A program made the position numbers and the translations under genes. From a bacterium (GTDB lineage: Bacteria > Oederibacteriota > PGYV01 > Palsa-1178): a DNA stretch of 64,000 nt. The notes below the pieces were generated by a model. That model was not told where the DNA came from, did not search any database, and worked only from the letters and a program-made list of their open reading frames with translations. The DNA lies in NCBI GenBank assembly GCA_037138355.1, contig JBAXIL010000002.1:3728-67727 (forward strand), in the 5' to 3' direction. Shown here piece by piece: positions 12,139 to 51,044 of the stretch; position 1 is the first letter of the stretch, and each line of letters opens with the position of its first letter.

Positions 12139-13416
12139 TTATTCAACTTTAAGCAATTTAATCAAAAACAAACTGATATCAGGTACATAAGTTATAAGCA
12201 TTAGAACCATAAACATAATAATAAGAAAAGGCACAGCAGATTTTGCCAAAGACATTACTGGTTTTCTGAACCTGAAGCTCGCTATAAATAGATTTATGCC
12301 TGCAGGTGGGGCATTATACCCTATCTCTAAATTGGTTAAAAATATCATTGCCATGTGAACAGGATCTATACCAAACTCCTTTGCAATTGGAACCATAAGC
12401 GGAAGTACGACTATAAGTGCCGAGAACACATCAAGAACAGCCCCAACTATTATAAGGAAAATATTTAACAATAAGAGAAATAGCCATTTCTCTCTTATGT
12501 ACATTTTCATCCAATCCAAAATCCTCATAGGTATTTGTTCATCCACTAAATAATTAGTAAGTCCCATAGCAGAACCTAAAATCACAAATATACCGCCAAC
12601 AACTATCATAGACGACCTTATAATACGAGGCACATCATGTTTCATATTTAAATCCTTATAAATAAAAACTTCTACAATAAAAGCATACACAGCTGTAAGT
12701 ATGGCCGCTTCTGACGGAGTGAAAGTCCCACTATAAATCCCCCAGATAACAACTAAAGGAAGAGGAATTTCCCAGGCAGCACCTTTAATGGCCTTCAATA
12801 ATTTTTTAAAAGAAAATGGTTCAACTTCGGCAACTACCATACCTTCTTTCAAACAATAAACAGCAAAAATAATAATTAATATTAATCCAGGAATAATACC
12901 AGCAATAAACAATTTGGAAATTGAAACTTTTGCTAAAACTCCATAAAGAATAAGTAACAAGCTTGGAGGAAAAAGAAGACCGATACTTCCCGAAGTAGTT
13001 AACAACCCAAGCGAAAACTTTTCAGAATATTTATCTTTAATCAACATAGGAAGAAGAAGGCCACCAAGTGCAATAATAGTCACTCCAGAAACACCAGTGA
13101 AGGAAGTAAAGAACGCACATACCAATAAAGTAACTATAGCAGTGCCGCCTTTAAACCAACCAACAGCAGCGCGAGATAAAGCAATTAGTCTTTTTGGCGT
13201 TCCTGATTCTGCTAACATATAGCCAGCAAAAGTAAAAAGTGGAATTGATATCAAAACAGAATTAGTCGCAATCCTGCTTATTTCAATAATAACAGCTGCT
13301 ATATCAATTCCTGCTATAGCAAAAAGAACTATTGCTAAGCCACCAAATACAATAAATAAAGGAGTACCAATTAGGGCAAGACCTATGAGCGCCAGTCCTA
13401 TTATAAGAGATATCAT
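12139..13416 (-). CDS. dctM: TRAP transporter large permease subunit
   Basis: 425 aa polytopic membrane protein with a DctM-family profile. It overlaps the dctQ stop by 4 nt. Confidence 0.9.
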   Translation of the reverse strand: MISLIIGLALIGLALIGTPLFIVFGGLAIVLFAIAGIDIAAVIIEISRIATNSVLISIPLFTFAGYMLAESGTPKRLIALSRAAVGWFKGGTAIVTLLVCAFFTSFTGVSGVTIIALGGLLLPMLIKDKYSEKFSLGLLTTSGSIGLLFPPSLLLILYGVLAKVSISKLFIAGIIPGLILIIIFAVYCLKEGMVVAEVEPFSFKKLLKAIKGAAWEIPLPLVVIWGIYSGTFTPSEAAILTAVYAFIVEVFIYKDLNMKHDVPRIIRSSMIVVGGIFVILGSAMGLTNYLVDEQIPMRILDWMKMYIREKWLFLLLLNIFLIIVGAVLDVFSALIVVLPLMVPIAKEFGIDPVHMAMIFLTNLEIGYNAPPAGINLFIASFRFRKPVMSLAKSAVPFLIIMFMVLMLITYVPDISLFLIKLLKVE

Positions 13417-13904
13417 TTTTTTATTCCTTTAATCATGCCCTTTGCAGATACAATAATAGACTGCAAGTAAACGAGAGCCATAAAAAAGAAAGTAAATGGA
13501 ATCACTGTTTCAAGAACCCATATAGGAACAAAAAAGATACTCTGACTACCAGAAATTTCAGAAATTATAAAATCTACTGAAGCTTTGAAAAGAAATGATA
13601 GAATAACAAAGGATACCGTGCTAATTAAAAAAACGATGAGGTTTTTGTTAAGTTTTTTAAGGGCTTTTGAAACGACATCAAGGCTTATATGCCTTCCTTT
13701 ATAAGAAGCCAAACAAGCACCTAAAAAAGCCACCCACAAAACGAGATAACGCATCATGCCTTCTGCATTACTAATTCCACTATGAAAAATAAGTCTTAAC
13801 ACAATCTGCGCTGCTGACAATATAAGCAATATCATAAAAAGCAGCACAACTGCAATTTTTATTAATCTATATAGATTATAATTAATTAATTTTAATATTT
13901 TCAA
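13413..13904 (-). CDS. dctQ: TRAP transporter small permease subunit
   Basis: 163 aa with 4 TM helices, positioned between dctP and dctM. Confidence 0.8.
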   Translation of the reverse strand: MKILKLINYNLYRLIKIAVVLLFMILLILSAAQIVLRLIFHSGISNAEGMMRYLVLWVAFLGACLASYKGRHISLDVVSKALKKLNKNLIVFLISTVSFVILSFLFKASVDFIISEISGSQSIFFVPIWVLETVIPFTFFFMALVYLQSIIVSAKGMIKGIKK

Positions 13905-14933
13905 CTATTGCTTTACCTTCCTGCCATCAGCCAAATACTTAAGCATTTCATCTAACATAGCCTTAGTATAATATTTACCTACAAGATCATTTCCTGTTTT
14001 TTCACTAACGAACTCAAAATATTTCTCATCTTCAGGCTTCTGTATTTTAGTGAAAACAATACCCTGTTTTTTCAACACATTCAATGCATCTTCGTTTTCT
14101 TTTCTTGACATTTTAGTTAATTTATCAAAATACTTTTTGCTCGATTCCTTTACAATTATTTGATACTTCAAAGGAATCTTGTCCCACATATTTTTACTCA
14201 CAAGAACACCACCAGGAACATTGGCAATCTTTAAATCAAGCATATATTTTACTTTTGTATTCCACTGCATAGCAATTGCTGATAAAGAAGAACAATACAC
14301 ACCTTCAATAAGTCCTGTTTGTAATGACTGCAAAACATCCGTAATAGAGAGTGGTATAGGAACAATCTTTAGATTTTTAAAGAGCGTACCAACAAGTACA
14401 TCATCTCCCCATATCCACATTTTGGTTTTCTGCAAATCGGAAAGTGTCTCCACTTTATTCTTAGTAAATACATATATATATCCAACTTCTGGCCAGCCAA
14501 GAACAACAAAACCTTTGTCAGCAAACTTTTTTTCAAATGTAGGAATCATTTTTATCATTACAGAATCAACATCTTTATAAGACTGAAAGAGAAGTGGTAG
14601 ATTTAAAAGCCGAACTTCTGGCACTACTTCACCCAAACCTTGAGAAGTAAAACCACCTGCTTGTAATTGTTTAATATTGATTTTTCTAATAACATCTTTT
14701 TCATCTCCCATAACACCGCCTGGATAAAACTTAAACTTTACTTCACCATTAGTTTTTTGCTGTATCTCATCATTTAATTCATTCATAATGTTCATCCATG
14801 TAGACCCATCTGGTGCAATTGATGCCAATTTTATTTCGTACTTTGCAGGCGCAGCCCATATAAATACAGCTGTCAGCATTGCAACCAATAACATAATAAT
14901 TTTTTTCATAAAACCTCCTAAGATTAACTTCAT
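13905..14933 (-). CDS. dctP: TRAP transporter substrate-binding protein (TatP/DctP type)
   Basis: 342 aa with a signal peptide and the DctP-family periplasmic SBP fold. The true start is possibly MKKIIMLL at 14909. Confidence 0.88.
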   Translation of the reverse strand: MKLILGGFMKKIIMLLVAMLTAVFIWAAPAKYEIKLASIAPDGSTWMNIMNELNDEIQQKTNGEVKFKFYPGGVMGDEKDVIRKINIKQLQAGGFTSQGLGEVVPEVRLLNLPLLFQSYKDVDSVMIKMIPTFEKKFADKGFVVLGWPEVGYIYVFTKNKVETLSDLQKTKMWIWGDDVLVGTLFKNLKIVPIPLSITDVLQSLQTGLIEGVYCSSLSAIAMQWNTKVKYMLDLKIANVPGGVLVSKNMWDKIPLKYQIIVKESSKKYFDKLTKMSRKENEDALNVLKKQGIVFTKIQKPEDEKYFEFVSEKTGNDLVGKYYTKAMLDEMLKYLADGRKVKQ

Positions 14934-14953
14934 CGAAACTTCCCTATTCTTGA

Positions 14954-15859
14954 TTAGAATATATCATTTTCCTTGAGCAATAATAACTCAGCCTTCTTTT
15001 TGGCTACCTGTGTGAACATATGCTCTGGTATAAGATCATTATCAGCATTTTGTATTCCTGTAATCAGTTGCTCAAAAAGTTCCTTATTCTGTGACTGGGA
15101 GGCATAAAACTTAGCCATAAAATAATCTGCTATTATCAACTTATCTCCTGAAATTGCCTTTATTTTATGATATTCAGCCTTGGCCTTCTCTAAATCTCCA
15201 CCAAACATAGCTGGCATTGAATATGTCACGATAAGAAAGAGATGCGGAATTCCATAGAAATATGTAGTGTCCAATTCTATTACTCTATTTATAATAGCAA
15301 CAACTTTCGGCAGATCAGCTATATCAGATGCCGAGTTTCTATTTAAATTCACATAACTACCCCACGCAAAAGCTGTCCAAAACAAAGCATCAATATCATT
15401 TTTTCCAAAGGTTGGCATTACTTTGACAAAATCATCCAGCGAACCTTCTGCCACTGCTTTAAAATCATTATTTTTCAGCATCACTTTCATACCATAATCT
15501 TTTGCTTTTTTGTAAAAGTTGGACGCTCTTCTTGAATTAATTTTTTCTTCTTTTCTATCTTGCCCTTCATCTTCAAGAAATGCCATAGCATACATGCCAT
15601 AAAGTTTGCAGCCCTTAATAAGTAGTCCATCATTTTCATTATTTGAACCTTTTATCAGTCCATCCAATAACTTTAAATTTGCAGGACCAGCCTGTTTAGC
15701 AAAATCCATATCTGTCTCAGCTAAAAACTCATCCACCACATCATCCATAAAAAGCGCAGTAGAATTAATTACCGTTGTTTTAAGTGAACATCCACCCAAC
15801 ACTATAGCTATGAGAATCGCCGCTATAAAAACAATTGAAACTCTTAAAATTTTATTCAT
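14954..15859 (-). CDS. tatT: TatT-like TPR lipoprotein (T-component of TPR-protein-associated TRAP transporters)
   Basis: Start trimmed to MNKILRVSIVFIAAILIAIVLGGCS, which carries a lipobox. The protein is helical and TPR-like, with segments such as ALFWTAFAWGSYVNL and TYFYGIPHLFLIV, and resembles the TatT family. It lies immediately upstream of dctP-dctQ-dctM. Confidence 0.6.
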   Translation of the reverse strand: MNKILRVSIVFIAAILIAIVLGGCSLKTTVINSTALFMDDVVDEFLAETDMDFAKQAGPANLKLLDGLIKGSNNENDGLLIKGCKLYGMYAMAFLEDEGQDRKEEKINSRRASNFYKKAKDYGMKVMLKNNDFKAVAEGSLDDFVKVMPTFGKNDIDALFWTAFAWGSYVNLNRNSASDIADLPKVVAIINRVIELDTTYFYGIPHLFLIVTYSMPAMFGGDLEKAKAEYHKIKAISGDKLIIADYFMAKFYASQSQNKELFEQLITGIQNADNDLIPEHMFTQVAKKKAELLLLKENDIF

Positions 15860-16622
15860 ATTTGTCAACTCCTTCAGGCAGTTTTTCCTTCCATATGCCT
15901 GTTGTCTCATCAAATATTTTATAACCTGCAAGATCAGCCCTGTGTCCAGATGTCTCTGCAATAGTATATCCTAAGCCTTTAGCATACCAATATTTTTCTG
16001 AATGAACTCCCTTGCCATCGCCTTCATCTACATTTGCTACTATGTTATATGCCTCAAAATCACCTGCTTCAGTCTTAATTGTTTCTTTGCTTACTACTTC
16101 AAAATCTGTTTTCAAATCCCTCCCCACTTTAATAAAGCCCAAGAGAGTTGCCTCTCCCCTGCCCACATAAGTCCACTTATTACCTACAACAAGCGGGAAC
16201 TTCATAAATGTCATTTCAGGAGTTAAAGTAACTTCTATAGACATATCAAAAAACGGAAAAGGATATTTGATTATTTTCATGGCAATGCCATTTTCTTTAT
16301 CTATGTTAATTAAATATCTAATATCCACTTGCGGCGCATAAAAATAATGATAATCCTTTCCATCTCTTTGTTCTATTGCTTTTGTTTCAGCTTTAACATA
16401 AAGAAGCTTCTCTGGATTTTTTTTTCTACGACCTTTTAAGTAAAGTATATTTCCCACATGACCGGGATAATACATATAAGAATCATCCACTACTACGGTA
16501 GCTTCTATTTTTGGATTAGTAACATTTTTTGCTTTTGCTGACGAAGCAGTCGCAGTATAAGCAGCAAAAGGAACAATCAACATAAGCGAAATTAAAAATA
16601 TTTTATTCATATCTTCCTCCAT
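15852..16622 (-). CDS. secreted DUF3108-like protein (hypothetical)
   Basis: 256 aa with signal peptide MNKIFLISLMLIVPFAAYTATASSA. The C-terminal motif KTEAGDFEAYNIVANV...KYWYAKGLG resembles TTDAGEFDCIVVQPFL...IWIWLTN in the LysM-DUF3108 protein at 25323-26375. Confidence 0.6.
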   Translation of the reverse strand: MEEDMNKIFLISLMLIVPFAAYTATASSAKAKNVTNPKIEATVVVDDSYMYYPGHVGNILYLKGRRKKNPEKLLYVKAETKAIEQRDGKDYHYFYAPQVDIRYLINIDKENGIAMKIIKYPFPFFDMSIEVTLTPEMTFMKFPLVVGNKWTYVGRGEATLLGFIKVGRDLKTDFEVVSKETIKTEAGDFEAYNIVANVDEGDGKGVHSEKYWYAKGLGYTIAETSGHRADLAGYKIFDETTGIWKEKLPEGVDKYE

Positions 16623-19664: not shown

Positions 19665-20477
19665 TTACTCATTGACTAAATCGTAAATTTCTTTTAACTT
19701 TCTCAACACTGGTTCAACTTTATCAAGCGCATATTGCGAATCTTTATCAGACAAAGCCTTTTTCGGATTAGGATGGACCTCCATAAATACACCTGTTGCC
19801 CCTGCAGCTACTGCTCCTCTGGCTATGGTATCAATATATTCCCTATCGGCTCCGCTACGGTTTCCAGCTCCACCAGGACGCTGAACAGCATGAGTAGCAT
19901 CAATAATAACTGGATAACCAGTTTTTCTCATATATGCTATGGATTTCAAATCAACCACCAAATTATTATAACCAAAAGAAAAACCTCTCTCTGTTAACAT
20001 TATTTCCTTGTTTCCTGTTGATAGAGCTTTTTGTATTATGTTATCCATTTCAAAAGGTGATAAAAACTGTCCCTTTTTAATATTAATTATTTTTCCTGTT
20101 TTTGCAGCAGCAACTATTAAATCTGTCTGCCTACACAAAAATGCAGGTATTTGTAATATATCAACAACCTTTGCTGTTTGAACCACATCTTTTGTTTCAT
20201 GAACATCAGTTAATACTGGAAGAGAAAGCTTTTCTTTTATCTTTGCCATAAGATTTAGACCTTTTTTTATTCCTGGTCCACGAAAACTTCCAAGAGAGGT
20301 ACGATTCGCTTTATCATAGGAGGCTTTGAAAACAAAAGGCATACCCAATCTTTGCGTTATTTCTTTAAGCTTCTCAGCTATCAAAAAAGCCATTTTTTCA
20401 TTTTCTATAACACAAGGACCAGCAATTAAGAAAAGTCCTTTTCCTGTAATCTCAGAGTATTTTTTTGAAAGTTTCAT
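19665..20477 (-). CDS. kdsA: 3-deoxy-8-phosphooctulonate (KDO8P) synthase
   Basis: 270 aa with MKLSKKYSEITGKGLFLIAGPCVIENE, a DAHP/KDO8P synthase family signature. Confidence 0.92.
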   Translation of the reverse strand: MKLSKKYSEITGKGLFLIAGPCVIENEKMAFLIAEKLKEITQRLGMPFVFKASYDKANRTSLGSFRGPGIKKGLNLMAKIKEKLSLPVLTDVHETKDVVQTAKVVDILQIPAFLCRQTDLIVAAAKTGKIINIKKGQFLSPFEMDNIIQKALSTGNKEIMLTERGFSFGYNNLVVDLKSIAYMRKTGYPVIIDATHAVQRPGGAGNRSGADREYIDTIARGAVAAGATGVFMEVHPNPKKALSDKDSQYALDKVEPVLRKLKEIYDLVNE

Positions 20478-20697
20478 TTTTCACCGCATTTTTGCCTTTG
20501 GCAATACTGCCTGTGGCATTTTTGTCTTCAACCATCCACTCCATTATTATATTTTTTATCATTTTTTCTAATGGCATATTATATTTTTTTGCAAGTGCTT
20601 GTATAGCATCATACTTTGCTTGTGCCGACAAGAACTTGGCCTTAGCAAATTTCAGCAGATCTTCCTGCATCTCACTGCTGGGTTTTTGCGGTTCCAT
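20452..20697 (-). CDS. hypothetical small protein (81 aa) between pyrG and kdsA
   Basis: The ORF starts immediately after the pyrG stop and overlaps the kdsA start by 26 nt. It is helical and Lys-rich. No recognisable family. Confidence 0.4.
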   Translation of the reverse strand: MEPQKPSSEMQEDLLKFAKAKFLSAQAKYDAIQALAKKYNMPLEKMIKNIIMEWMVEDKNATGSIAKGKNAVKNETFKKIL

Positions 20698-22356
20698 TTA
20701 TTTTCCTTTCTTTTTATCAATCGATGCCTTTATAAACTCTCTGAATAAAGGATGTGGAGCTCTTGCTTTTGACTTAAATTCTGGGTGAAACTGAACTGCT
20801 ATAAACCATGGATGTTTAATGTATTCAATCATTTCTACAAGAAAACCGTCTGGAGAAGTTCCAGTTATAATAAAACCATTCTCTTCAAATTTATCCCTGT
20901 ATAAGCTATTGAACTCATATCTGTGCCTGTGCCGTTCAAAAATAAACTTTTCCTTATATGCTGCATATGATTTCGTAGCAGGTTTAACCTTACAAGGATA
21001 TGCACCCAATCTCATGGATGCGCCCATATACTCTATGTGTTTTTGTTCTTCAAGTTTTGATATTACTGGATATCTTGTTTTACTTTCAAATTCGGTTGAA
21101 TTTGCACTTTTCATACCCAAAACATGTCTGGCAAACTCAATTACCGAAACCTGCATTCCCAAACAAATACCAAAGTATGGTATTTTCTTTTCTCTGGCAT
21201 ATTGAATTGCTGCAATCTTTCCTTCTATGCCTCTCGTACCAAATCCTCCTGGAACAAGCACACCGTGTATTCCAGCAAATAACTTTCCAACCTGTTTACT
21301 TTTCATTAATGGCTCAATATCTTTTTCAGAATCAATCCATTTTATATTTACTTTTACATTATTACCTATACCACCGTGTAGTATTGCTTCTTTTATAGAT
21401 TTATAAGCATCTTGAACTTCAACATATTTACCAACTACCGCTATGTTAACCTCGCCTATTGGAAATTTAATTTTTCTAACGATATTATCCCATGTCTTTA
21501 AATTAATTTTTTTTGCTTTTAAACCAAGCTTCTTTACAATCAAATCATCTAAACCTTGTTGATGAAACATTCTTGGCACTTCATATATAGTAGGCACATC
21601 AAATGCCTGAATAACTGCATCATAGTCAACATTACAAAAAAGCGCTATTTTATCTCTCTCGCCTTTTGACATCTTCATTTCAGTTCTGCATAAAAGTACA
21701 TCTGGCTGAATACCGATTGAACGCAATTGTGCCACTGAATGCTGAGTTGGCTTAGTTTTAATTTCCCCAGCGGCTTTAATATATGGAACTAAGGTCAAGT
21801 GAACATACAACACATTATCACGACCTAAATCCTGCTGCATTTGCCTAATTGCCTCAAGAAAAGGCTGACTTTCTATATCACCAACCGTACCACCTATCTC
21901 TATTATCGCAACTTCAATATCCGTTCCCTTTAAAAGAGATTTCAACCTGTCTTTAATCTCATTAGTTACATGAGGAATTACCTGCACGGTTTTACCAAGG
22001 TAATCACCACGGCGTTCTCTGTCTATAATTACGCTATATATCTTTCCCGTTGTAACATTATTTTCCTTCGTAAGCACAGCATTTGTAAATCTTTCATAAT
22101 GACCTAAATCAAGATCTGTTTCAGCACCATCTTCAGTGACATAAACCTCGCCATGCTGAAAAGGACTCATTGTTCCAGGATCTACATTTAAATAAGGATC
22201 GTATTTTTGCATTGTAATTTTTACTCCGCGAGCTTCTAATAAAGCAGCGATAGAAGATGCCGCAATCCCCTTACCAAGTGATGAAACAACTCCTCCAGTT
22301 ACAAAAATATACTTTTTACCCTTCACATAGCACCTCATTATGATTGCAGAATTCAC
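20698..22356 (-). CDS. pyrG: CTP synthase
   Basis: The conserved N-terminus [15 protein letters not shown] is present, plus a GATase domain (GICLGMQ, HRHRYE). The true start may be the internal MRC at 22338. Confidence 0.93.
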
Positions 22357-22398: not shown

Positions 22399-23130
22399 CT
22401 AAATTATTTTTTTTAATTTAGCAAAATCTTGTTTTGTATCTATTCCAATACTCTTGCTTTTAACTACAACAACTTTAATTTTGCAACCATTTTCCAACAT
22501 TCTTAATTGCTCAAGTTTTTCTACGCCTTCATATCTGCTATCAAACTTAAGCCACCTGTCAAGAACGCTTTTTTTATAAGCATACAAGCCAATATGTTTT
22601 AGGTACACTCCCGGCTTTAACTTTGCCTCATCACGGTTATAAGGTATTGCCGCTCTTGAAAAATACAAAGCATTTGAAAAAGAATCCAACACTACCTTAA
22701 CTACTGAGGTATTATTAATTTCTTTATTAGAAACAAGAACAGAGGCCAATGTAGAGGCCTCACATGACTTATCCTCAATCAATGCCTTTATGGCCTTATC
22801 AATAAAAACAGGTTCCAATAAAGGCTCATCGCCTTGTATATTTACTACGATATCATTCATATTTGCTCGTATTGATTTTAATGCTTCCCTTATGCGTTCT
22901 GTTCCAGATTTACATGAGGCTGGCGTCATTATTACTTTCCCACCAGCCGCTTCTATCACATTTTTTATTTTCACGCTATCAGTAGCCACAAATAACTGCT
23001 TTATAGAATTTGCCTTTTTAGCATTGGCATAAACCATTTCTATCAAACTTTTTCCTTTTATTTTAGCAAGCATCTTTTCCGGAAACCTGGTTGATTTCAA
23101 CCTTGCCGGTATTATTCCAATAATATTCAT
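22399..23130 (-). CDS. kdsB: 3-deoxy-manno-octulosonate cytidylyltransferase (CMP-KDO synthetase)
   Basis: 243 aa with MNIIGIIPARLKSTRFPEKML, the KdsB signature. Confidence 0.9.
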   Translation of the reverse strand: MNIIGIIPARLKSTRFPEKMLAKIKGKSLIEMVYANAKKANSIKQLFVATDSVKIKNVIEAAGGKVIMTPASCKSGTERIREALKSIRANMNDIVVNIQGDEPLLEPVFIDKAIKALIEDKSCEASTLASVLVSNKEINNTSVVKVVLDSFSNALYFSRAAIPYNRDEAKLKPGVYLKHIGLYAYKKSVLDRWLKFDSRYEGVEKLEQLRMLENGCKIKVVVVKSKSIGIDTKQDFAKLKKII

Positions 23131-23174: not shown

Positions 23175-23666
23175 TTAATTGTAATATTTTAATACCTTTG
23201 CAATTATATTTGTTGTTGATTTGCCTTTAACATAAGGAACATTTTTAACTTTTCCACCAGCTGCAAGAACGATATCGGCTCCTATTATCTTATTCAGTGG
23301 CCAATCACCACCTTTTACCAACACATCTGGGACAATGTCCTTTATTATATTATAAGGATCCTTTTCTTCAAACAATGTGACTATGTCCACGCATTCCAAA
23401 GCCGACATTACTTCAGCCCTCTCGGCTTGAGCTGTCACAGGACGCTTTGGACCTTTAATTTGCCTAACTGACGCATCACTATTTAGCGCCAAAATTAAAA
23501 TATCGCCCATTTTTTTTGCAGCGATTAAGAACCTAACATGACCACCATGAATTAAATCATAACAGCCGTTTGTAAATACTATTTTATTTCCATTGTCTTT
23601 CAGTTTTTCCACTGTGGCAATTAGTTTTTTTCTATCAAAAATTACTTTATCAATTTTTTTCATCAA
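23175..23666 (-). CDS. hldC: D-beta-D-heptose 1-phosphate adenylyltransferase (HldE domain II-type, stand-alone), copy 1
   Basis: 163 aa cytidylyltransferase-like protein with FTNGCYDLIHGGHVRFL, the HxGH motif. It overlaps the upstream kinase gene. Confidence 0.85.
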   Translation of the reverse strand: MMKKIDKVIFDRKKLIATVEKLKDNGNKIVFTNGCYDLIHGGHVRFLIAAKKMGDILILALNSDASVRQIKGPKRPVTAQAERAEVMSALECVDIVTLFEEKDPYNIIKDIVPDVLVKGGDWPLNKIIGADIVLAAGGKVKNVPYVKGKSTTNIIAKVLKYYN

Positions 23667-24651
23667 CCGCTGCTTTTAATTCTTTTATATTGAGAGTTAC
23701 TACACCTACTTCGGCTACTACTTCTCCAGCCGCTATATTAGAAAGCACTGCTGCTTCATCAAAAGAGGAACCTGAAGCAAGTGCCAGTGTAACCACAGAA
23801 ATCACAGTATCTCCAGCGCCAGTCACATCAAATACTTCCCTTGCCACTGTCGGTACCGAACGCATTCGACCGCCTTCATATAAAGACATACCTTCTTCTC
23901 CGCGTGTGATAAGTATGGCAGCTGAATTCGTGATATTTTTTAATATTTTAGCAGCAGCTAAAACCTGCTCTTCATTTGATATTTGTATCCCAGTTGCTTC
24001 TGAAGCCTCTTTTTTATTGGGAGAAATCAATGTCACATTGTTAAATATGCTCACATTATCTGGTTTAGGATCTACTGTCACTATCTTGCCTTTAGCCAAA
24101 CTCATAATGCCTGACACAAGTCCACTTGTGAGCAACCCTTTATCGTAATCAGAAAATACTACAGCATCCATATTTTTCATGATTTTTGTTATTTTTCCAA
24201 TGATAATTTTTGCGGTCGCCAACGAAATATCATTTTTTTGTTCTTTATCAATACGCACCACCTGCTGATGGTGAGCAATTACTCTGGTCTTAACTGTGGT
24301 TGGTCTATTTTTATCTGTGACAATAGCAGAGACATCCACATTTTCTTTTTTTAAATACGAAGTAAGCTTTTTAGCTTTGTCATCTTGTCCAATCACACCC
24401 GCGGCATAAACTTTTGCACCTAATGACACAAGGTTCAATATTACATTTGCTGCTCCGCCTGGTTTAGCATCCTCTTTTTGTACTTCCACTACTGGAATTG
24501 GAGCTTCTGGTGAGATTCTGGAAACCTTGCCCCATATATACTCGTCTATCATTAAATCTCCAACCACGAGTATTTTCTTATTTTTAAATTTATGAATTAT
24601 TTTTTTTAATGTTGCTTTACTTATTTTATTCAACTTAAATTTCTCCCGCAA
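23650..24651 (-). CDS. hldA: D-beta-D-heptose 7-phosphate kinase (HldE domain I-type, stand-alone), copy 1
   Basis: 333 aa of the ribokinase/pfkB family ([20 protein letters not shown]). Confidence 0.85.
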
Positions 24652-25210
24652 GTTTTTTTTCTACAAGATCACAAATTACATGAAAATAAGTTATGTGCGT
24701 TTCCTGAATTCTCATAGTATTAGATGATTTAACGTCTATCAGTATGTCACAAAGCTTCGCCATTTTACCGCCACCTTGACCTGTAAAACCAATTACCTGC
24801 ATGCCATGTCTTTTAGCTTCCCTAATCGCAAGAATGACATTTTTTGAATTACCAGAAGTAGAAATGGCTATTGCTGCATCACCAAAATTACCCAATGCCT
24901 CAACCTGCCTTTCAAATACTCTATCAAAACCATAATCATTTCCACAGGAAGTAAGAATCGAGGAATCAGTAGTTAAAGCAATAGCAGGATATCCTCTGCG
25001 CTCCAACTTCAAACGCACAACAAACTCAGCTGCAATATGTTGGGCATCAGCGGCTGAACCGCCATTACCAAATATAAGGATTTTATTACCAGCGTGAAGA
25101 GTGGAGTATAGAGAGTCAACTGCCTTTTGAAGTTTTGACTTGTTGCCTTTATAACTTTTTAATTTTACAACACAACTTTCCTTAATTGACTTTTCAAAAT
25201 AATCTGCCAT
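24635..25210 (-). CDS. gmhA: phosphoheptose isomerase (sedoheptulose-7-P isomerase)
   Basis: 191 aa SIS-domain protein ([20 protein letters not shown]). Confidence 0.88.
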
Positions 25211-25322
25211 AACAGCTCCCTTTGTCTTAGGATATATAATTATAATAGGTTTGGACTAGTTTAGTCAACGACAAAGTGTAAAAAACTATCCCAGACCGTT
25301 TGTCTTTATAATAAAAACTTAA

Positions 25323-26375
25323 TCACTCTGCCTTTACAACATCCGCCGATTGCAATATCACATCTATAGTTCCAATCGCTATTTGACTTTTAATAATTAC
25401 TGGCATTAAGTTTTTATCATTAGTAAGCCATATCCAAATATCGCCTTTTTGTCTAAAAATTCCTTCATATTTCAAAAAAGGTTGAACCACTATACAATCA
25501 AATTCACCTGCATCAGTTGTGACTTTTTCATTACGCAGTTTTTTTACTACTATCTGATATGTTTTACATTCGTCTGAAGATACATCTATCTTTATTTCAT
25601 TTTCACCTTTATATACACTTCTAAAATAATAAAACTCAGACAAAACATCCTGAACAAAAGGAACAATGTCGCACTTGTCACCATTGTTTTTTACCGCAAA
25701 TGATTGCTCGTGGTTAAAGTCCATTATTGTGGTATTACGATACCCACCTTCCTCAAGTTTTTTTGAATATTTCCACGAAAATAAACCCATTACATCCATA
25801 TAAGTTGATATGACATCCTTGACTCTATAAAACGGCTCAAAAAATGGCGCTGTTCTGGCTGTAGCATCTATATGATATACCTGTCTGTCATTATATTTTT
25901 CTATGTCTTTTACTTCCAGAACAGCAATACCTGCTGTTACACCAAAATACTTTACCCCAAAGGTAAGCTTTTCACCAACTCCAAAGGCCTTATTTTCAGT
26001 TACCCTGTAAACAAAATTACTTTTATTCTTAACATCTTCATTATCGTCTAAACTTTCACATAAAACTGATATGTTAATTATAATGCCTTCCTTTAGTATA
26101 ATATCTTCTTTAAGAGAATTTGATAATGCCAATTTATTCCAAAGCGACCCTTTGCCTGAAATTGCTTTTGATATTTTCCATAAGCTATCACCTTTTCGAA
26201 CTTTATAAAGCATGCTTGAATCTACGGAAGAATTCTTTTCATTTTGCTTTTGTGCTTCAGCTCTAACTAATCTTTCACCTTGAGTCACTTCAAGAATAGA
26301 AACTTTATTTTGAATAGTAGCGCAGGATGAAAGTACAAAAACAATCAACCCATAAAGGAAAATATGTTTTTTCAT
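25323..26375 (-). CDS. lipoprotein with LysM domain and C-terminal DUF3108-like domain
   Basis: Signal with lipobox (LSSC). LysM segment YKVRKGDSLWKISKAISGKGSLWNKLALSN. The C-terminal part (HIDATARTAPFFEPFYRVKD ... TTDAGEFDCIVVQPF) is DUF3108-like. It is embedded in the heptose/LPS cluster. Confidence 0.7.
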   Translation of the reverse strand: MKKHIFLYGLIVFVLSSCATIQNKVSILEVTQGERLVRAEAQKQNEKNSSVDSSMLYKVRKGDSLWKISKAISGKGSLWNKLALSNSLKEDIILKEGIIINISVLCESLDDNEDVKNKSNFVYRVTENKAFGVGEKLTFGVKYFGVTAGIAVLEVKDIEKYNDRQVYHIDATARTAPFFEPFYRVKDVISTYMDVMGLFSWKYSKKLEEGGYRNTTIMDFNHEQSFAVKNNGDKCDIVPFVQDVLSEFYYFRSVYKGENEIKIDVSSDECKTYQIVVKKLRNEKVTTDAGEFDCIVVQPFLKYEGIFRQKGDIWIWLTNDKNLMPVIIKSQIAIGTIDVILQSADVVKAE

Positions 26376-27352
26376 CTGTTTATGAGTTCCTTTAATTTTG
26401 ATAATATAATTTTTCTATCAATCAAATCCATATCTTGGGGCTTTGGGTTATTATTTTTTGGTTGTATTATGACTTGCTTATTTCCAAGACAGGCCCATCT
26501 TTTTGGTTTCATTGAAGCAATTGTATCTGGGGGAAAAAAGCTCAATGTCTTTACTCCAAGCGCTGCTGCAATGTGCATTGGTCCCGTAGAACTACTTATC
26601 AAAACTTCAGCCTGAGCAATAACTCCAGCAAACTGTCGCATTGTCAATTCTTCGTTCATTATAAAAATATTATTTTTTTGTGTCATATTATTTTTAATTT
26701 TATTTAACAAATCCTTTTCAGTTTTTCCACCTGTCAATAGAATATGATATCCGTCTTCCAGTATTTCATCCGCCAGCTTTGAATATACCACTTCACTCAA
26801 GTTCCAAGCTGAGCCTTTGCTCCCTGGGTGGATAATGATAAACCCAGAACCTATTCCTTTTTGCTTGATATATTCAAGACCATTTTGCTTTTCTTTTTCT
26901 GTAATGAAATAATATTCTTTCACTGCAGTGACATTGTCTAATAATTTTCCTGCAGTCATTAAATTATAATCTGCTTCGCTTTTCTCTGATTTTTTTCTGC
27001 TCATTGCTACTTTTTGATTATATAGGAAAGAATACCATCTTGAGGCTGTTCCGTATCTTTGAGGGATACCTGTTTTAAAGAAATACCAAGCAAGTTCAGG
27101 ACGAGGATAAGCAGCAATCACTGTATCAAACTTTTCAGTTTTGAGTTTTGATAAGAGTAGGTCAGGCCGTTTTTTATCATATATTATCGTGCTGTAAACA
27201 TTTGGATTATTCAGAAGAAGGTCATTGGCATATTGAGAGACAAGGACAGTTATTTTTACAGCTGGATATTTGGCTTTAACTTCCTTTATGAGCGGAGTCG
27301 TGAGTAGTAAATCACCAATACCATCTGTTCTGGATATTAAGATTTTATCCAT
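26372..27352 (-). CDS. LPS heptosyltransferase (glycosyltransferase family 9; WaaC/WaaF/WaaQ-like)
   Basis: 326 aa with MDKILISRTDGIGDLLLTTPLI and a GT9 C-terminal region. Which heptosyltransferase it is cannot be told from sequence alone. Confidence 0.85.
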   Translation of the reverse strand: MDKILISRTDGIGDLLLTTPLIKEVKAKYPAVKITVLVSQYANDLLLNNPNVYSTIIYDKKRPDLLLSKLKTEKFDTVIAAYPRPELAWYFFKTGIPQRYGTASRWYSFLYNQKVAMSRKKSEKSEADYNLMTAGKLLDNVTAVKEYYFITEKEKQNGLEYIKQKGIGSGFIIIHPGSKGSAWNLSEVVYSKLADEILEDGYHILLTGGKTEKDLLNKIKNNMTQKNNIFIMNEELTMRQFAGVIAQAEVLISSSTGPMHIAAALGVKTLSFFPPDTIASMKPKRWACLGNKQVIIQPKNNNPKPQDMDLIDRKIILSKLKELINR

Positions 27353-27435
27353 TTTATGTCCTTTATTGATCTCAAAGCACTTATCCCAAAATCAAAGTTT
27401 AAATATACTTTAGGAAAAAGAACTTTGGGTTGAAA

Positions 27436-27912
27436 CTATTTATATTTTTCTATTATTGTCTTTATGATATCTTTAGTTGAGTGATCTTTAGAGTCGCCCA
27501 CAATCGCTATCTTAATCCCAAACTTCTTTGCCATTTCTTTTTCTGGGACTGTATCTAAAGTATAGTCAGTCCCTTTACAATGATAAGTTGGTAAAAGTAT
27601 TTGTAATGTTTTATCAACGGTTAATTCATTAAATATAACTATGTAATCCACAAACTCAAAAGCAGACATAATCTCTGCCCTCTCACGCTGATTGACAAGA
27701 GGTCTGCCTTTTCCTTTAAGTTTTCTGACAGATGAATCCGAGTTTAAGCCGAGTACAAGTGTGTCACCTTTTCCCTTTGCGGCTTTTAGAAATCTTATAT
27801 GTCCCACATGAAGTATATCAAAGCAACCATTGGCAAAAGCGACTTTTTTACCCTGTTTTTTCAATTTTGCCACAATCTTTGAAAGTGCTTCCCTGCTTTT
27901 AACTTTAGACAT
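27436..27912 (-). CDS. hldC: D-beta-D-heptose 1-phosphate adenylyltransferase-like (HldE domain II-type), copy 2
   Basis: 158 aa with FANGCFDILHVGHIRFL. It is a paralogue of the protein at 23175-23666. Confidence 0.85.
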   Translation of the reverse strand: MSKVKSREALSKIVAKLKKQGKKVAFANGCFDILHVGHIRFLKAAKGKGDTLVLGLNSDSSVRKLKGKGRPLVNQRERAEIMSAFEFVDYIVIFNELTVDKTLQILLPTYHCKGTDYTLDTVPEKEMAKKFGIKIAIVGDSKDHSTKDIIKTIIEKYK

Positions 27913-28888
27913 TTTTAAGTGCTCCCTTTAGCTCATTTACTGTTACAGTTGCAACTCCTCGTTTCATTACCACAAGTCCGCCACCTATATTTGCCAAATA
28001 AGCCGCATCAGCTAACTTTGCTCCGCAAGCTAAAGCGATTGAAATGATTGACGAAACCGTGTCACCTGCACCAGATACATCCACAATCTCATCTGTGCCA
28101 AAAGGAGTAACTTTTACAATTTTCTTATTTTCAAACACTATCATGCCTCTGCTCCCACGAGTTACAATCATACCCTTCGCTTTCATCATTGTTGCAAGTT
28201 TTTTTACAATATATTCTACATTTTTTTCTTCATACTTTTCAAAATCAACAGCAGGACCTGCTTCTGTTTCATTTGGTGTCGCAGTTGCAACATATTTGAA
28301 TTTTTTCAACCCATAACGCGAATCAACAACAACTTTTTTTCCTTTTTTAGCGAGTGCGTTTACAGTTTTAATTACTTCGTCGGTTATCATACCGCTTCCA
28401 TAATCTGATACAAGAATTACATCTATATTAGCAGCGGCCTTTTTAATATTTTCTATTAACTTTAATTCAATTTGCTTGTCCATTATTCCTTCGTTATACC
28501 TATCGATCCTTACTATCTGCTGTTTCACTGTATGAACTGAACCTGCCATAACTCTGGTTTTTACAGGGATGCTGTAATTTTCTGTCTTTACTATAAAAGA
28601 AGCATCAACTCCCTTTTCTTTCATCATGTTAAGCAAAATCTCTGAATATTCATCTGTTCCAACAATTGAAACCGGTATAGGAATAGCACCCAAATCAACA
28701 ATATTCATTACTGGATTTGCTCCGCCACCTGCAAGGTAAGTTGTTTTATTATATTTCAATATTAGAACAGGAGCTTCTCTTGAAATGCGTTCTGTTTCAC
28801 CATATAGGTATTCATCAAGTATAAAATCCCCTAAAACTAAAACTTTTTGTCCTTTAAACTTGTCTATTATTGAAGCGTATTTATTCAT
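27905..28888 (-). CDS. hldA: D-beta-D-heptose 7-phosphate kinase-like (HldE domain I-type), copy 2
   Basis: 327 aa of the ribokinase family (VLVLGDFILDEY, DVSGAGDT). It is a paralogue of the protein at 23650-24651. Confidence 0.85.
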   Translation of the reverse strand: MNKYASIIDKFKGQKVLVLGDFILDEYLYGETERISREAPVLILKYNKTTYLAGGGANPVMNIVDLGAIPIPVSIVGTDEYSEILLNMMKEKGVDASFIVKTENYSIPVKTRVMAGSVHTVKQQIVRIDRYNEGIMDKQIELKLIENIKKAAANIDVILVSDYGSGMITDEVIKTVNALAKKGKKVVVDSRYGLKKFKYVATATPNETEAGPAVDFEKYEEKNVEYIVKKLATMMKAKGMIVTRGSRGMIVFENKKIVKVTPFGTDEIVDVSGAGDTVSSIISIALACGAKLADAAYLANIGGGLVVMKRGVATVTVNELKGALKNV

Positions 28889-28974: not shown

Positions 28975-28998
28975 AGAGAGGCAGCAAGCAGCCTCTCT
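28975..28998 (-). promoter_or_regulatory. perfect 8-bp GC-rich hairpin overlapping the gmhB stop codon
   Basis: On the plus strand AGAGAGGC-AGCAAGCA-GCCTCTCT. No U-tract follows on either strand. Possible RNA processing or stability element between gmhB and hldA copy 2. Confidence 0.3.
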
Positions 28999-29569
28999 AC
29001 ACTATCAAGAACTTAACTGCTTGATAAAAATCTTTGGCTATAAAGTCAGGTTTGTCATAAGCTAATTTGATGAGCTTCTTTTCTTCCTTGCCGTATCCAG
29101 TAAGAACAAGCGCGGTTTTCATTTTAGCATTCTTACCCAAATGAACATCCGTCAATTTGTCCCCTATTACAAAACTTTGCTTAAGATCTATGTTGAATTT
29201 TTTTTGAGCGGCTTTAATCATGCCAATTTTAGGTTTTCTACACTCACAATCTTTCAAATATTTTTTTAAAACTGCCTTTTTAGGATGATGAGGACAATAA
29301 TAATATGCGTCTATTTTCAGAAAATATTTTTTTAAAAAAGCTGTTATGTGTTTATGTACTTCTTTTACAAAGGTCTCTTTTATGTACCCTCTTGCCACAC
29401 CGGACTGATTTGTCACGACTATTACTTTATATCCAGCAGCTTTGAGCAACTGCATAGCTTTAATAGAGCGAGAATAAAACTTAATTTTTTTCAGAGAGCT
29501 TATATATCCCACTTCATGAATGAGATTACCATCACGGTCAATAAATGCAGCTTTACTTTTGTATTTCAT
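28997..29569 (-). CDS. gmhB: D-glycero-D-manno-heptose 1,7-bisphosphate phosphatase
   Basis: 190 aa HAD phosphatase (AAFIDRDGNL) with the GmhB zinc site C-x-H-H-x...C-x-C (CPHHP...CECRKP). Confidence 0.85.
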   Translation of the reverse strand: MKYKSKAAFIDRDGNLIHEVGYISSLKKIKFYSRSIKAMQLLKAAGYKVIVVTNQSGVARGYIKETFVKEVHKHITAFLKKYFLKIDAYYYCPHHPKKAVLKKYLKDCECRKPKIGMIKAAQKKFNIDLKQSFVIGDKLTDVHLGKNAKMKTALVLTGYGKEEKKLIKLAYDKPDFIAKDFYQAVKFLIV

Positions 29570-31319
29570 CTATCTTTTCTTCCTTATTAAGTTTAAATTG
29601 TAAATTGTAAAGTTTTGTATAAACTCCGTTCTTTTTAATTAAGGAATCATGACTTCCTTCTTCAACTATAATATTATTATCTACCACTATTATATTTGCC
29701 GCATTTCTTACCGTAGAAAGCCTATGAGCTATCACAAAAGCTGTTCTGTTTTTCATTAGATTATTTATAGCTTCCTGTACGAGTATTTCTGATTCCGAAT
29801 CGAGCGAAGAAGTGGCTTCGTCAAGTATTAGGATTGGTGGATTTTTCAGAATAGCTCTGGCTATTGCCATTCTCTGCCTCTGACCACCAGAAAGTCTCAC
29901 GCCTCTATCTCCAATTAAAGTGTCATATTTTTCTGGCAGTTTTTCTATAAACTCTGAAGCATTAGCCGCACGCGCTGCCATTTCAACTTTACCCATATCA
30001 TTTGTCTCTAAACCATATGATATATTGTTTTTTATTGAGTCATTAAACAGTATGGTTTCCTGAGTAACTATACCTATAAGATTACGCAAAGACTCAATTT
30101 TAATATCTTTTATATCTATTCCGTCAATGGTAATAAGGCCTTTCTTAACATCATAAAATCTGGCAAGTAAATCCGCCAAAGTACTTTTGCCTGCCCCTGA
30201 AGGTCCAACGACGGCAAATATCTGTCCTTTATTTATTTTAAAGTTTACATCTCTTAAAACATCCTGACCTTCTACATAATTAAAACTAATATTTTTAAAT
30301 TCAACTGATGATTTGAATTCATTTAACTCTTTTGGAACTTCCGACTCTACTATTTCAGGTTTCGTGTCAAGAATAGTAAATATTCTTTCAGCTGCTGCCA
30401 AAGCCTGCTGTATAACATTATTAATATCATTTAATTTTTTAATCTGCGGATAAAGTGCCGTCAAGCCACCAACAAAGGCAAAGAATGTGCCCGCCGTAAG
30501 TTCGCCTTTAATTACTGCTGTTCCAGCCGCCCAAACAAGTACGGCAACGCCTATGGCACCAATTGACTCCATTACTGGAGAAGACATAATATATGCCCTT
30601 GTCCCCCTCATGGTATGGTCAAAAAGACTTGATAGTTCAGCATTAAATTTTTTACGCTCATAATTTTCCATGCCAAAAGCTTTTACTATTCGTATTCCAT
30701 TAAAAGTTTCATTTAAAATTGATGTTAAAGTTCCCATTTTCAGCTGTACATTTCCAGCAGCAGATTTTATTATTTTACCAAATTTTGATATCGGTAATAT
30801 GGCAATCGGAAAAATAACAATTGTAATTAAAGCAAATTTCCAGCTTAAGAAAAAAAGAAGCCCAACCAATCCAGCGATAGTTAGCACACTTCCAACTAAG
30901 CTCCCAAGCAGATTCGCAAGCGCTCCTTGCACCATTTGCACATCATTAGTGATTCTTGATATAAGAATTCCTATTTTTTGGTTATTAAAAAAGTTCATTG
31001 AAAGACCAGTTATATGTTCATAAAGCTGCTTTCTCATATTCAAAATAATTTTTGTTCCAACATAATTTATTAGATAACTTTGTATATAACCACATACTCC
31101 TTTAAAAACAAAAATAACTATTATGGCAACTGGAAGAATACTTATCCAATGTATGGCCTCGGTCTTATCAGGGTTTGCAAGAATTTTATCTATGACAGGC
31201 TTAATCACATACATAGATGCGGCCGTCAAACCAGATGTAAAAATCATGAAAATCATGGCCGTAATAACTCTGTCCATGTAGGGGCTCATGTATTTTAATA
31301 ATCTCTTGTAAGTATTCAT
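29553..31319 (-). CDS. msbA: lipid A export ABC transporter, fused permease/ATP-binding protein
   Basis: 588 aa: 6 TM helices plus an ABC domain with Walker A (GPSGAGKST), the signature LSGGQRQR and Walker B (ILILDEATS). Confidence 0.9.
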   Translation of the reverse strand: MNTYKRLLKYMSPYMDRVITAMIFMIFTSGLTAASMYVIKPVIDKILANPDKTEAIHWISILPVAIIVIFVFKGVCGYIQSYLINYVGTKIILNMRKQLYEHITGLSMNFFNNQKIGILISRITNDVQMVQGALANLLGSLVGSVLTIAGLVGLLFFLSWKFALITIVIFPIAILPISKFGKIIKSAAGNVQLKMGTLTSILNETFNGIRIVKAFGMENYERKKFNAELSSLFDHTMRGTRAYIMSSPVMESIGAIGVAVLVWAAGTAVIKGELTAGTFFAFVGGLTALYPQIKKLNDINNVIQQALAAAERIFTILDTKPEIVESEVPKELNEFKSSVEFKNISFNYVEGQDVLRDVNFKINKGQIFAVVGPSGAGKSTLADLLARFYDVKKGLITIDGIDIKDIKIESLRNLIGIVTQETILFNDSIKNNISYGLETNDMGKVEMAARAANASEFIEKLPEKYDTLIGDRGVRLSGGQRQRMAIARAILKNPPILILDEATSSLDSESEILVQEAINNLMKNRTAFVIAHRLSTVRNAANIIVVDNNIIVEEGSHDSLIKKNGVYTKLYNLQFKLNKEEKIDEIQK

Positions 31320-50588: not shown

Positions 50589-51044
50589 CTATTTATTAGT
50601 AAGAAATTTCTGAAGCTCTTTTGTGAAAGCGTTAATATCTTTAAACTGCCTATATACTGAAGCAAACCTGACATATGCTACCTCATCAAGCTTAGCTAAT
50701 TTTTCCATTAGTAATTCGCCCATAACAGTAGAAGACACTTCTTTTTCCATTCTGCTATAAAGCTGCTTTTCAATATCATCAACTAATTCATAAAGCTTTT
50801 CTACAGATATAGGTCTTTTTTCACAGGCCTTTGTTAAACCCGCAAGTATTTTATTTCTATCAAAAGCTTCCCGTCTACCATCTTTCTTTATGACCATTGG
50901 CAATGAGTGCTCTATCTGTTCGTATGTTGTGAAACGCTTTCCACATTTCAAACACTCGCGCCGCCTTCTTATAGCCTCACCGTCACGACTTTCACGAGAA
51001 TCAACTACTTTATCTTTTTTATGTCCGCAGTATGGGCACTTCAT
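50589..51044 (-). CDS. nrdR: transcriptional repressor NrdR
   Basis: 151 aa with [19 protein letters not shown] (zinc ribbon) plus an ATP-cone. Confidence 0.92.

Follow-up and report, generated by a model that had tools for sequence, protein, structure and literature searches.

The 64,000-nt stretch of DNA analysed here (the window; positions 3,728 to 67,727 of contig JBAXIL010000002.1, assembly GCA_037138355.1) carries two complete, non-identical kinase/nucleotidyltransferase pairs of the HldA/HldC type within one lipopolysaccharide (LPS) gene cluster. Judged by their sequences, these are two anciently diverged, non-orthologous HldA/HldC systems and not one duplicated system. Pair 1 (kinase K1 and nucleotidyltransferase NT1) is canonical and groups with E. 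coli HldE, while pair 2 (K2 and NT2) is a member of an uncharacterised clade, referred to as type 2, which is the usual pair in the LPS clusters of Acidobacteriota and several other phyla. On balance, the two systems probably draw on a single GmhA and a single GmhB to supply the LPS core, pair 1 through canonical ADP-heptose and pair 2 through the same types of reaction. The four open reading frames (ORFs) and the kinase and transferase motifs (NGCYDLIH/NGCFDILH for the latter) that an earlier note on this DNA had described from the letters alone were all present and intact, with matches to their families far beyond chance:

27905-28888, minus strand: K2, type-2 HldA-like PfkB kinase, predicted heptose-7-phosphate 1-kinase, 327 aa (TIGR02198, 7.1e-83, 278.3 bits)
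27436-27912, minus strand: NT2, type-2 HldC-like, predicted heptose-1-phosphate nucleotidyltransferase, 158 aa (TIGR02199, 1.5e-47, 161.1 bits)
23650-24651, minus strand: K1, canonical type-1 HldA heptose-7-phosphate kinase, 333 aa (TIGR02198, 4.4e-113, 377.5 bits)
23175-23666, minus strand: NT1, canonical type-1 HldC heptose-1-phosphate adenylyltransferase, 163 aa (TIGR02199, 3.2e-57, 192.4 bits)

Gene families were assigned by NCBIfam and Pfam matches on the ORF translations, the curated equivalog cut-offs being 345 bits for the kinase model TIGR02198 and 181.5 bits for the nucleotidyltransferase model TIGR02199. Both members of pair 1 passed these cut-offs, whereas both members of pair 2 fell under them, although TIGR02198 was still by far the best family for K2, followed by ribokinase with 66.7 bits. 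Further type-2 members also scored just under the cut-offs (159.6-171.2 bits for the nucleotidyltransferases and 282.4 bits for the kinase of locus L006) and therefore received generic NCBI names, namely 'PfkB family carbohydrate kinase' and 'adenylyltransferase/cytidyltransferase family protein'. Among the Pfam families, PF00294 (PfkB) matched K1 with 9.5e-42 and K2 with 2.3e-31, and PF01467 (CTP_transf_like) matched both nucleotidyltransferases. The identities to the kinase and nucleotidyltransferase parts of E. coli HldE were 40% and 45% for pair 1, and 33% and 36% for pair 2. Moreover, K1 matched B. cenocepacia HldA (4e84) with 204.7 bits vs. 119 for K2, and NT1 matched B. pseudomallei HldC (BpHldC, 5x9q) with 116 bits vs. 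92 for NT2.

Compared with each other, the two kinases were 37% identical and the two nucleotidyltransferases 42%, and kinases from other phyla were 43-48% identical to K2 and only 34-38% to K1. In the neighbour-joining tree of the kinases, a type-2 clade of 79 sequences stood apart from the clade containing K1 and E. coli HldE (bootstrap 0.98), and the corresponding tree of the nucleotidyltransferases had a type-2 clade of 63 sequences (bootstrap 1.0). The term 'paralogous' used in the earlier note thus stands in the sense of ancient homology only and not in that of local duplicates, and the duplication it proposed is contradicted by the placement of the pairs in two deep clades with orthologues in different phyla, as well as by sister lineages that have pair 1 only. 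Near-identical copies or a pseudogene, either of which it had named as fatal to its proposal, were not what was found, given the identities above, the intact frames, the retention of both pairs across the phylum and a nonsynonymous divergence (dN) of pair 2 no higher than that of pair 1. Furthermore, the GC content revealed no compositional anomaly and no sign of recent transfer. A recent tandem duplication or a decaying copy is virtually ruled out by the identities, the deep clades, the intact frames, the low dN in relatives and the unremarkable composition.

The closest named relatives of the window proteins were found in metagenome-assembled genomes (MAGs) of Candidatus Goldbacteria/Goldiibacteriota. 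Three sister lineages (L089, L090 and L091), with K1 orthologues 52-56% identical, had no pair 2, and their clusters followed the order msbA-gmhB-GT9-LysM/DUF3108-gmhA-K1-NT1-kdsB…pyrG-kdsA-rnhA. In L089, gmhB and the GT9 gene lie 4 nt apart, whereas in the window pair 2 stands between them with spacers of 108 and 83 nt. The window GT9 showed 29-34% identity and 161-208 bits to the GT9s of the sister clusters vs. at most 120 bits to those of type-2 modules, and it is, by this comparison, the resident gene of the cluster. For gmhB, the tree bearing on whether it was resident or arrived with pair 2 had a bootstrap of 0.29. Either the ancestor of Goldbacteria gained pair 2, or the sisters lost it.

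The full two-pair synteny was also present in L001 (K2 79% identical) and in L008, a Goldbacteria MAG (68% identical), and the contigs matched across three protein searches indicate that at least a dozen further contigs carry both types. Overall, both pairs persist down to about 60% protein identity. The dN values relative to L001 were 0.153 for K2, 0.069 for NT2, 0.224 for K1 and 0.185 for NT1, constraint being judged from dN only, with synonymous divergence (dS) saturated at these distances. In particular, NT2 was the most conserved gene of the cluster and GT9 the fastest evolving, measured as divergence from L001. Neither pair is decaying, and the constraint on pair 2 equals or exceeds that on pair 1.

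The pairs belong to a run of minus-strand genes that extends from 19.6 to 31.3 kb. The neighbours reported in the earlier note (gmhA, LysM-DUF3108, GT9, gmhB and msbA) were all recovered by hidden Markov model (HMM) matches; gmhB and msbA, which it had placed downstream, are upstream of pair 2 in the direction of transcription, the cluster being on the minus strand. Besides the two pairs, the cluster contains:

29553-31319, minus strand: msbA, lipid A/core flippase ABC transporter (TIGR02203, 6.8e-175, 582.8 bits, just missing the cut-off of 602; Pfam ABC_membrane and ABC_tran)
28997-29569, minus strand: gmhB, heptose 1,7-bisphosphate 7-phosphatase of the HAD-IIIA type (NF006506, 3e-46, 157.3 bits, cut-off 178; TIGR00213, 141.2 bits, cut-off 149.6)
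26372-27352, minus strand: GT9 glycosyltransferase, putative heptosyltransferase (PF01075, 6e-20; TIGR02201, 98.5 bits, cut-off 170)
25323-26375, minus strand: LysM-DUF3108 protein with a lipoprotein-like signal, …VLSSC (PF11306, 2e-37; LysM, 5.6e-06)
24635-25210, minus strand: gmhA, sedoheptulose-7-phosphate isomerase, the sole copy in the window (NF010546, 6.1e-64; TIGR00441, 202.3 bits, cut-off 209.45)
22399-23130, minus strand: kdsB, CMP-Kdo synthetase (NF003952, 1.9e-88, above the cut-off)
20698-22356, minus strand: pyrG, after kdsB in the LPS cluster
19665-20477, minus strand: kdsA, after pyrG in the LPS cluster

The conserved cluster opens with msbA, whose position is unchanged in L001, L008, L089 and L090, where kdsB and the genes following it also keep the same order. 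The LysM-DUF3108 gene, a conserved companion of GT9, holds its position in L001, L008 and L089-L091. The only gmhB of the window presumably serves both pairs, and the GT9 of the cluster is the likely consumer of the NDP-heptose. The genes within each pair overlap, as had been noted earlier, by 17 nt for K1/NT1 and 8 nt for K2/NT2. Moreover, gmhA is directly coupled to K1, for which two starts were considered. The start in the ORF list (TTG at 24651, 333 aa) overlaps gmhA by 17 nt, and the NCBI model (P0241, 327 aa) starts from TTG at 24633, 1 nt past the gmhA stop (24635). The K1 orthologues have 325-327 aa, and TTG 24633 is probably the true start.

A scan of the cluster for promoters gave promoter-like sites in numbers not above those of shuffled sequences (61 vs. 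51.8±8.2), and a terminator scan of the cluster found no convincing terminator on either side of pair 2. An inverted repeat (AGAGAGGC…GCCTCTCT) without a T-run was observed at about 28975-29000 on the minus strand, directly past the gmhB stop, within the spacer of 108 nt that separates gmhB from K2, and it could be an attenuator, a processing site or the remnant of an insertion junction. At the other end of the cluster, a small ORF (20452-20697) just upstream of kdsA is kept in L001 (18265-18498) and L008 (16431-16631), with lengths of 66-81 aa. In the window and in L001 it is flanked by pyrG and kdsA; L008 lacks pyrG at this place, and its copy is flanked by kdsB and kdsA. No Pfam match is on record for the copies of L001 and L008.

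To determine how widespread the type-2 modules are, species representatives of GTDB were scanned with patterns drawn from the alignment of type-2 nucleotidyltransferases, which yielded a total of 80 loci. These came mostly from Acidobacteriota, and also from Nitrospinota, Methylomirabilota, Nitrospirota, Tectomicrobia, Binatia, Planctomycetota and one deltaproteobacterium. A cluster look-up of the carriers of type-2 genes yielded names of MAGs only, and none of a cultured organism. The type-2 kinase was directly upstream of the nucleotidyltransferase in 73 of the 80 loci, gmhB was found near the nucleotidyltransferase in 46 and GT9 in 53, the usual order within the LPS clusters being GT9-gmhB-kinase-NT-GT9, where NT stands for the nucleotidyltransferase. 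Other recurrent neighbours were lpxK (41/80) and a lipid A acyltransferase gene (15/80), and L003 combined several of these genes in the order waaA-lpxK-lpxL-GT9-gmhB-K-NT-GT9. Furthermore, DUF3108 genes appeared about 2 kb downstream of the type-2 nucleotidyltransferases in 22 of the 80 loci.

A search of 1.84 billion representatives with a type-2 nucleotidyltransferase profile recovered fusions of this domain to a GmhB-type HAD phosphatase (P0390 and P0458), to a GT9 domain (P0375), to Kdo/WaaP-family kinases (P0393 and P0413) and to a GT4 domain (P0436). Long matches that looked like fusions in P0062, P0097 and P0275 were discarded as internal repeats or assembly artefacts. Together with the synteny, the GmhB and GT9 fusions are the strongest evidence available and support that type-2 nucleotidyltransferases act on the product of GmhB and feed heptosyltransferases; the coupling characteristic of HldC, with supply by GmhB and use by GT9, was found for them in both gene order and fusions. 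A fusion to a PEMT/ICMT-like methyltransferase was also observed (P0389 among the fusions listed), and PEMT/ICMT-like genes adjoin the pair in L003 and L091.

Some type-2 loci showed further departures from the usual order. In a Planctomycetota LPS cluster (L065:7554-10672), lpxK is followed by a fused type-1 HldE (LVAGKSTT) and then by a stand-alone type-2 nucleotidyltransferase (GDPKDHSTR), whose C-terminal tail is rich in Ala, Pro and Lys; genes for a WaaP-like kinase, a GT4 and two GT9s come next, and no type-2 kinase is present. This combination suggests that the two transferase types are not simply interchangeable. An aldo-keto reductase of about 330 aa (PF00248; weak NCBIfam match, YdjG-like) was found between the type-2 kinase and nucleotidyltransferase in L006 (11051-12034), L007 (11057-12070) and the contig of P0053, in the order msbA-x-gmhB-K-AKR-NT-GT9 (AKR, aldo-keto reductase), within one group of probable Acidobacteriota, and its insertion hints at a modified sugar in that lineage. 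Finally, 11 of the 80 loci, from Pyrinomonadaceae, had an epimerase/dehydratase of about 280 aa from the short-chain dehydrogenase/reductase (SDR) family directly upstream of GT9-(gmhB)-K-NT (e.g. L069:7016-7858 and L050:6290-7138), which reached 55.9 bits on the HldD model (cut-off 274.6) and is not a recognisable HldD.

The motifs of the PfkB/ribokinase fold (DV(T/S)GAGDT, PNxxE and GG(A/G)AN) are kept in both kinase types, K2 retaining GAGD, PNxxE, GG and RxSxEAP. A total of 48 positions were conserved in at least 90% of sequences and identical in both types, including GG, KTR, QQxxRxD, SDY, PNxxE, TRGxxGM and DVxGAGDT. The types differ in the kinase lid (RISPEAPVPV in type 1 vs. RxSREAPVLIL in type 2) and in the motifs DPK vs. 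DSR and SDYxKG vs. SDYGxG.

For the nucleotidyltransferases, the HxGH motif of the cytidylyltransferase-like Rossmann fold is present as HGGH in NT1 and HVGH in NT2, and the catalytic motifs are intact in all four proteins of the two pairs. Larger differences were observed elsewhere: type 1 has TNG at the N-terminal motif, ExxP in the loop motif, LVKGGD(W/Y) in the central motif and (F/L/Y)xxGxSTT at the C-terminus, whereas type 2 has ANG, ExT(V/A), HxKGTDYTxxTVPE and GDxKxHST(K/R), respectively. These type-2 motifs were conserved in more than 90% of 117 sequences, and GDxKxHST(K/R) was near-invariant across phyla. NT1 carries TNG, KGGDW and YVKGKSTT, the last fitting the C-terminal motif but for a Tyr replacing Phe/Leu, and NT2, with DSKDHSTK, lacks the (F/L)xxGxSTT motif. 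In BpHldC, TNG, ExTP and KGG are docking-predicted contacts of the heptose phosphate, and Phe143 of FEHDRSTT is predicted to stack on the adenine (PMC7993394); this position is Asp in 115 of the 117 type-2 nucleotidyltransferases.

According to two commentaries on Tang et al. 2024 (PMC11461863, PMC11573728), the C-terminal (F/L)xxGxSTT governs the NTP scope of heptose nucleotidyltransferases, and an Arg at motif position 5 (the STTR5 hallmark) marks enzymes that also make CDP- and UDP-heptose. According to the first (PMC11461863), this Arg is not a strict predictor, Salmonella HldE being promiscuous without it. At position 5, a Lys is found in NT1 and a His in NT2, so that neither carries the hallmark. 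The comparison of nucleotide-binding residues that the earlier note had recommended thus revealed transferases that differ at the presumed nucleotide-recognition site, YVKGKSTT vs. DSKDHSTK (PMC7993394; PMC11461863), and a different use of nucleotides by type-2 nucleotidyltransferases is plausible from these motifs. The type-1 nucleotidyltransferases of the sister lineages without pair 2 (L089, L090 and L091) were observed to carry LVEGRSTT, with the STTR5 hallmark, and the NT1s of Goldbacteria, which occur alongside NT2, had Lys or Asn at position 5.

The AlphaFold model of NT2 had a predicted local distance difference test (pLDDT) score of 91.6, its least confident part being the motif loop (pLDDT 62). 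Its best match in the Protein Data Bank (PDB) was BpHldC (TM-score 0.77-0.85, root-mean-square deviation 1.9 Å over 138 columns), which beat the ethanolamine-, choline- and glycerol-phosphate cytidylyltransferases.

In the explanation that we consider probable, pair 1 (gmhA-K1-NT1) would be the resident canonical route, in which GmhA would yield the 7-phosphate of D-glycero-D-manno-heptose, K1 would phosphorylate C1 and the single GmhB would strip the 7-phosphate. Pair 2 would be an Acidobacteriota-type module placed between gmhB and the GT9 gene, a position that is empty in the sisters, and it may run the same two types of reaction on the same GmhA/GmhB intermediates, supplying NDP-heptose to the GT9 heptosyltransferases of the LPS core. 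Since both pairs are under selection, they are probably not fully redundant. The main point of difference would most likely be the transferase, whose rebuilt nucleotide-pocket motif could shift the nucleotide preference, the kinetics or the regulation. Several observations weigh against this explanation. It would be unusual for two fully isofunctional pairs to be retained in the long term, which pulls toward distinct products; K2 alters conserved type-1 residues near the substrate lid (RISPEAPVPV to RxSREAPVLIL) and in the DPK motif (to DSR); and gmhA appeared within 10 kb in none of the 80 type-2 loci, which makes a non-heptose sugar phosphate possible for the clade. Moreover, gain and loss of pair 2 are not separated by the data, the gmhB tree having the low bootstrap given above, and no assay of any type-2 enzyme was found in the literature, the substrates and products, like the reason why both pairs are kept, being predicted.

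Alternatively, the two pairs may be isofunctional, the second being kept for dosage, different regulation or growth conditions, which is possible, although we would not expect it. Both pairs have the catalytic motifs and the HldA/HldC folds in common, the cluster has one gmhA, one gmhB and one GT9, and type 2 alone is apparently sufficient in other phyla, as type 1 alone is in the sister lineages. However, both pairs persist to about 60% protein identity with equal or stronger constraint on pair 2, pure redundancy is rarely so lasting, and the promoter and terminator scans show no separate regulation. The existence of two donor pools appears a little more doubtful still; instead of ATP, NT2 would use CTP, UTP or GTP to activate heptose-1-phosphate, or its preference would be strongly shifted, so that ADP-heptose from pair 1 and a second NDP-heptose from pair 2 would serve different glycosyltransferases or glycans. 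The replacement by Asp of the Phe predicted to stack on adenine (PMC7993394) argues for it, as do the near-invariant type-2 motif at a site said to govern NTP scope (PMC11461863 and PMC11573728), the fused type-1 HldE followed by a stand-alone type-2 nucleotidyltransferase in L065, and the conservation of NT2, the highest in the cluster. However, the motif is, according to the commentary on Tang et al., not a strict predictor, as the promiscuous Salmonella HldE without Arg illustrates; the NT2 model has its lowest confidence in the motif loop; and no computed result singles out a particular nucleotide. In addition, most type-2 loci show no other pair near their GT9 genes, and characterised GT9 heptosyltransferases use ADP-heptose. 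A bolder form of the same idea, in which type-2 HldC-like nucleotidyltransferases would be a widespread uncharacterised class making a non-ADP heptose donor (e.g. CDP-, UDP- or GDP-heptose), with Goldbacteria and L065 running two donor pools for different steps of LPS assembly, is unlikely and is put forward as a speculation.

It is improbable that pair 2 handles a different sugar phosphate, either that of another isomer of heptose or that of a hexose or octose, by the same kinase-phosphatase-nucleotidyltransferase logic. The lack of gmhA within 10 kb of the 80 type-2 loci would fit such a role, and so would the aldo-keto reductase between kinase and nucleotidyltransferase in some Acidobacteriota, the scores of pair 2 below the curated equivalog cut-offs, the changes of K2 at conserved positions (lid P to R, DPK to DSR and KG to xG) and those of NT2 in the docking-predicted sugar-phosphate motifs (TNG to ANG, ExTP to ExTV and KGG to KGT). 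Nevertheless, the best HMM and PDB matches are still HldA/HldC by a wide margin, the 48 positions identical in both kinase types include HldA-type motifs, GmhB-type phosphatases and GT9 are close neighbours or fusion partners of the type-2 genes, and the window has gmhA in the same cluster.

Regarding known systems, the split HldA/HldC of Burkholderia (4e84 and 5x9q) and the fused HldE of E. coli share with the window pairs the folds (PfkB and HxGH cytidylyltransferase-like) and the partners GmhA, GmhB, GT9, MsbA and the Kds genes. Pair 1 is a straightforward member of this group, whereas pair 2 scores lower, falls in a separate clade and has an NT2 without (F/L)xxGxSTT and the aromatic residue proposed to stack on adenine. 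Moreover, neither model has two pairs together in one operon-like cluster. In its clade, its signature motifs and its linkage with gmhB and GT9, pair 2 agrees with the type-2 modules of Acidobacteriota, Nitrospinota, Methylomirabilota and other phyla; in those phyla type 2 is the only pair seen in the locus, whereas in the window it coexists with a full canonical pair and gmhA.

A second heptose route, of the HddA/HddC type, is known that leads to GDP-heptose by means of a GHMP kinase and a GlmU/RmlA-type NTP_transferase. In organisms having both routes, the two kinase/nucleotidyltransferase pairs share GmhA and supply two nucleotide-heptose pools for different glycans. In contrast, the two window pairs both consist of PfkB and CTP_transf_like proteins and both lie inside the lipid A-core cluster, and an HddA/HddC-type GDP-heptose route for pair 2 was rejected, its proteins being of the wrong families, with no GHMP or PF00483 matches. 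The enzymes of the Hdd-type route are mentioned in PMC4691232 and PMC7993394. As for the promiscuous STTR5 nucleotidyltransferases (Tang et al. 2024, via the commentaries PMC11461863 and PMC11573728), they belong to the same family, and NT1, NT2 and the sister nucleotidyltransferases differ at the same motif, the hallmark Arg being replaced by Lys in NT1 and by His in NT2. The type-2 GDxKxHST(K/R) is not the motif described there.

The absence of a local hldD reported in the earlier note was borne out. A tblastn search of the window with E. coli HldD gave no match (best E=3.3), and no SDR epimerase came out of the Pfam scans of its remaining ORFs. Furthermore, no hldD was found in the flanks L092 and L093 (3.8 kb on the left, up to the contig end, and 9.6 kb on the right), and no homologue appeared in the related clusters L001, L008 and L089-L091. 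The SDRs near some type-2 loci were discarded as hidden HldDs, as they reached 56-118 bits against a TIGR02197 cut-off of 274.6 and were GalE/RmlB-like. The hldD of E. coli is grouped with waaF and waaC, a long way from hldE, and, because of this lack of linkage, the local absence of hldD says little about whether D,D- or L,D-heptose is incorporated.

Nucleotide-activated heptoses are building blocks of LPS and potent innate-immune agonists. The analysis reveals a large HldA/HldC-like clade that falls outside the curated equivalog models and whose nucleotide-pocket motif is different and near-invariant. It also shows that the 'ADP-heptose synthase' labels given to Acidobacteriota-type genes rest on homology and not on assay. 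A literature search on type-2 enzymes, on genomes with two HldA/HldC pairs and on the heptose genes of Acidobacteria retrieved no paper. CDP- and UDP-heptose can be made by some enzymes, with unknown physiological roles (commentaries on Tang et al. 2024, PMC11461863 and PMC11573728), and Goldbacteria, having both pairs, are a clean natural system in which to address the question of whether more than one nucleotide-heptose donor is in use in bacteria. If both pairs make ADP-heptose, the case would be one of ordinary xenologous redundancy in an uncultured phylum. Pair 2 is, in any event, a real and conserved variation on known chemistry, which would be more interesting if the type-2 nucleotidyltransferase used a nucleotide other than ATP.

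Across phyla, DUF3108 proteins (carrying LysM in Goldbacteria and their sisters) are retained beside the GT9 and heptose genes, which suggests a role related to LPS that has gone unrecognised. Beside the TRAP-T transporter genes of the window (12139-15961), another ORF (15852-16622) with weak similarity to DUF3108 was observed. The window also contains an ilv/leu operon (1-10.4 kb), a secretin and a type II secretion system/type IV pilus (T2SS/T4P) ATPase (38779-41729), and a Wzy_C/O-antigen-ligase-like TPR protein (51041-53302). The GC skew was negative in each 2-kb bin of the window (1-64000), and nearly all genes up to 41.7 kb were on the minus strand.

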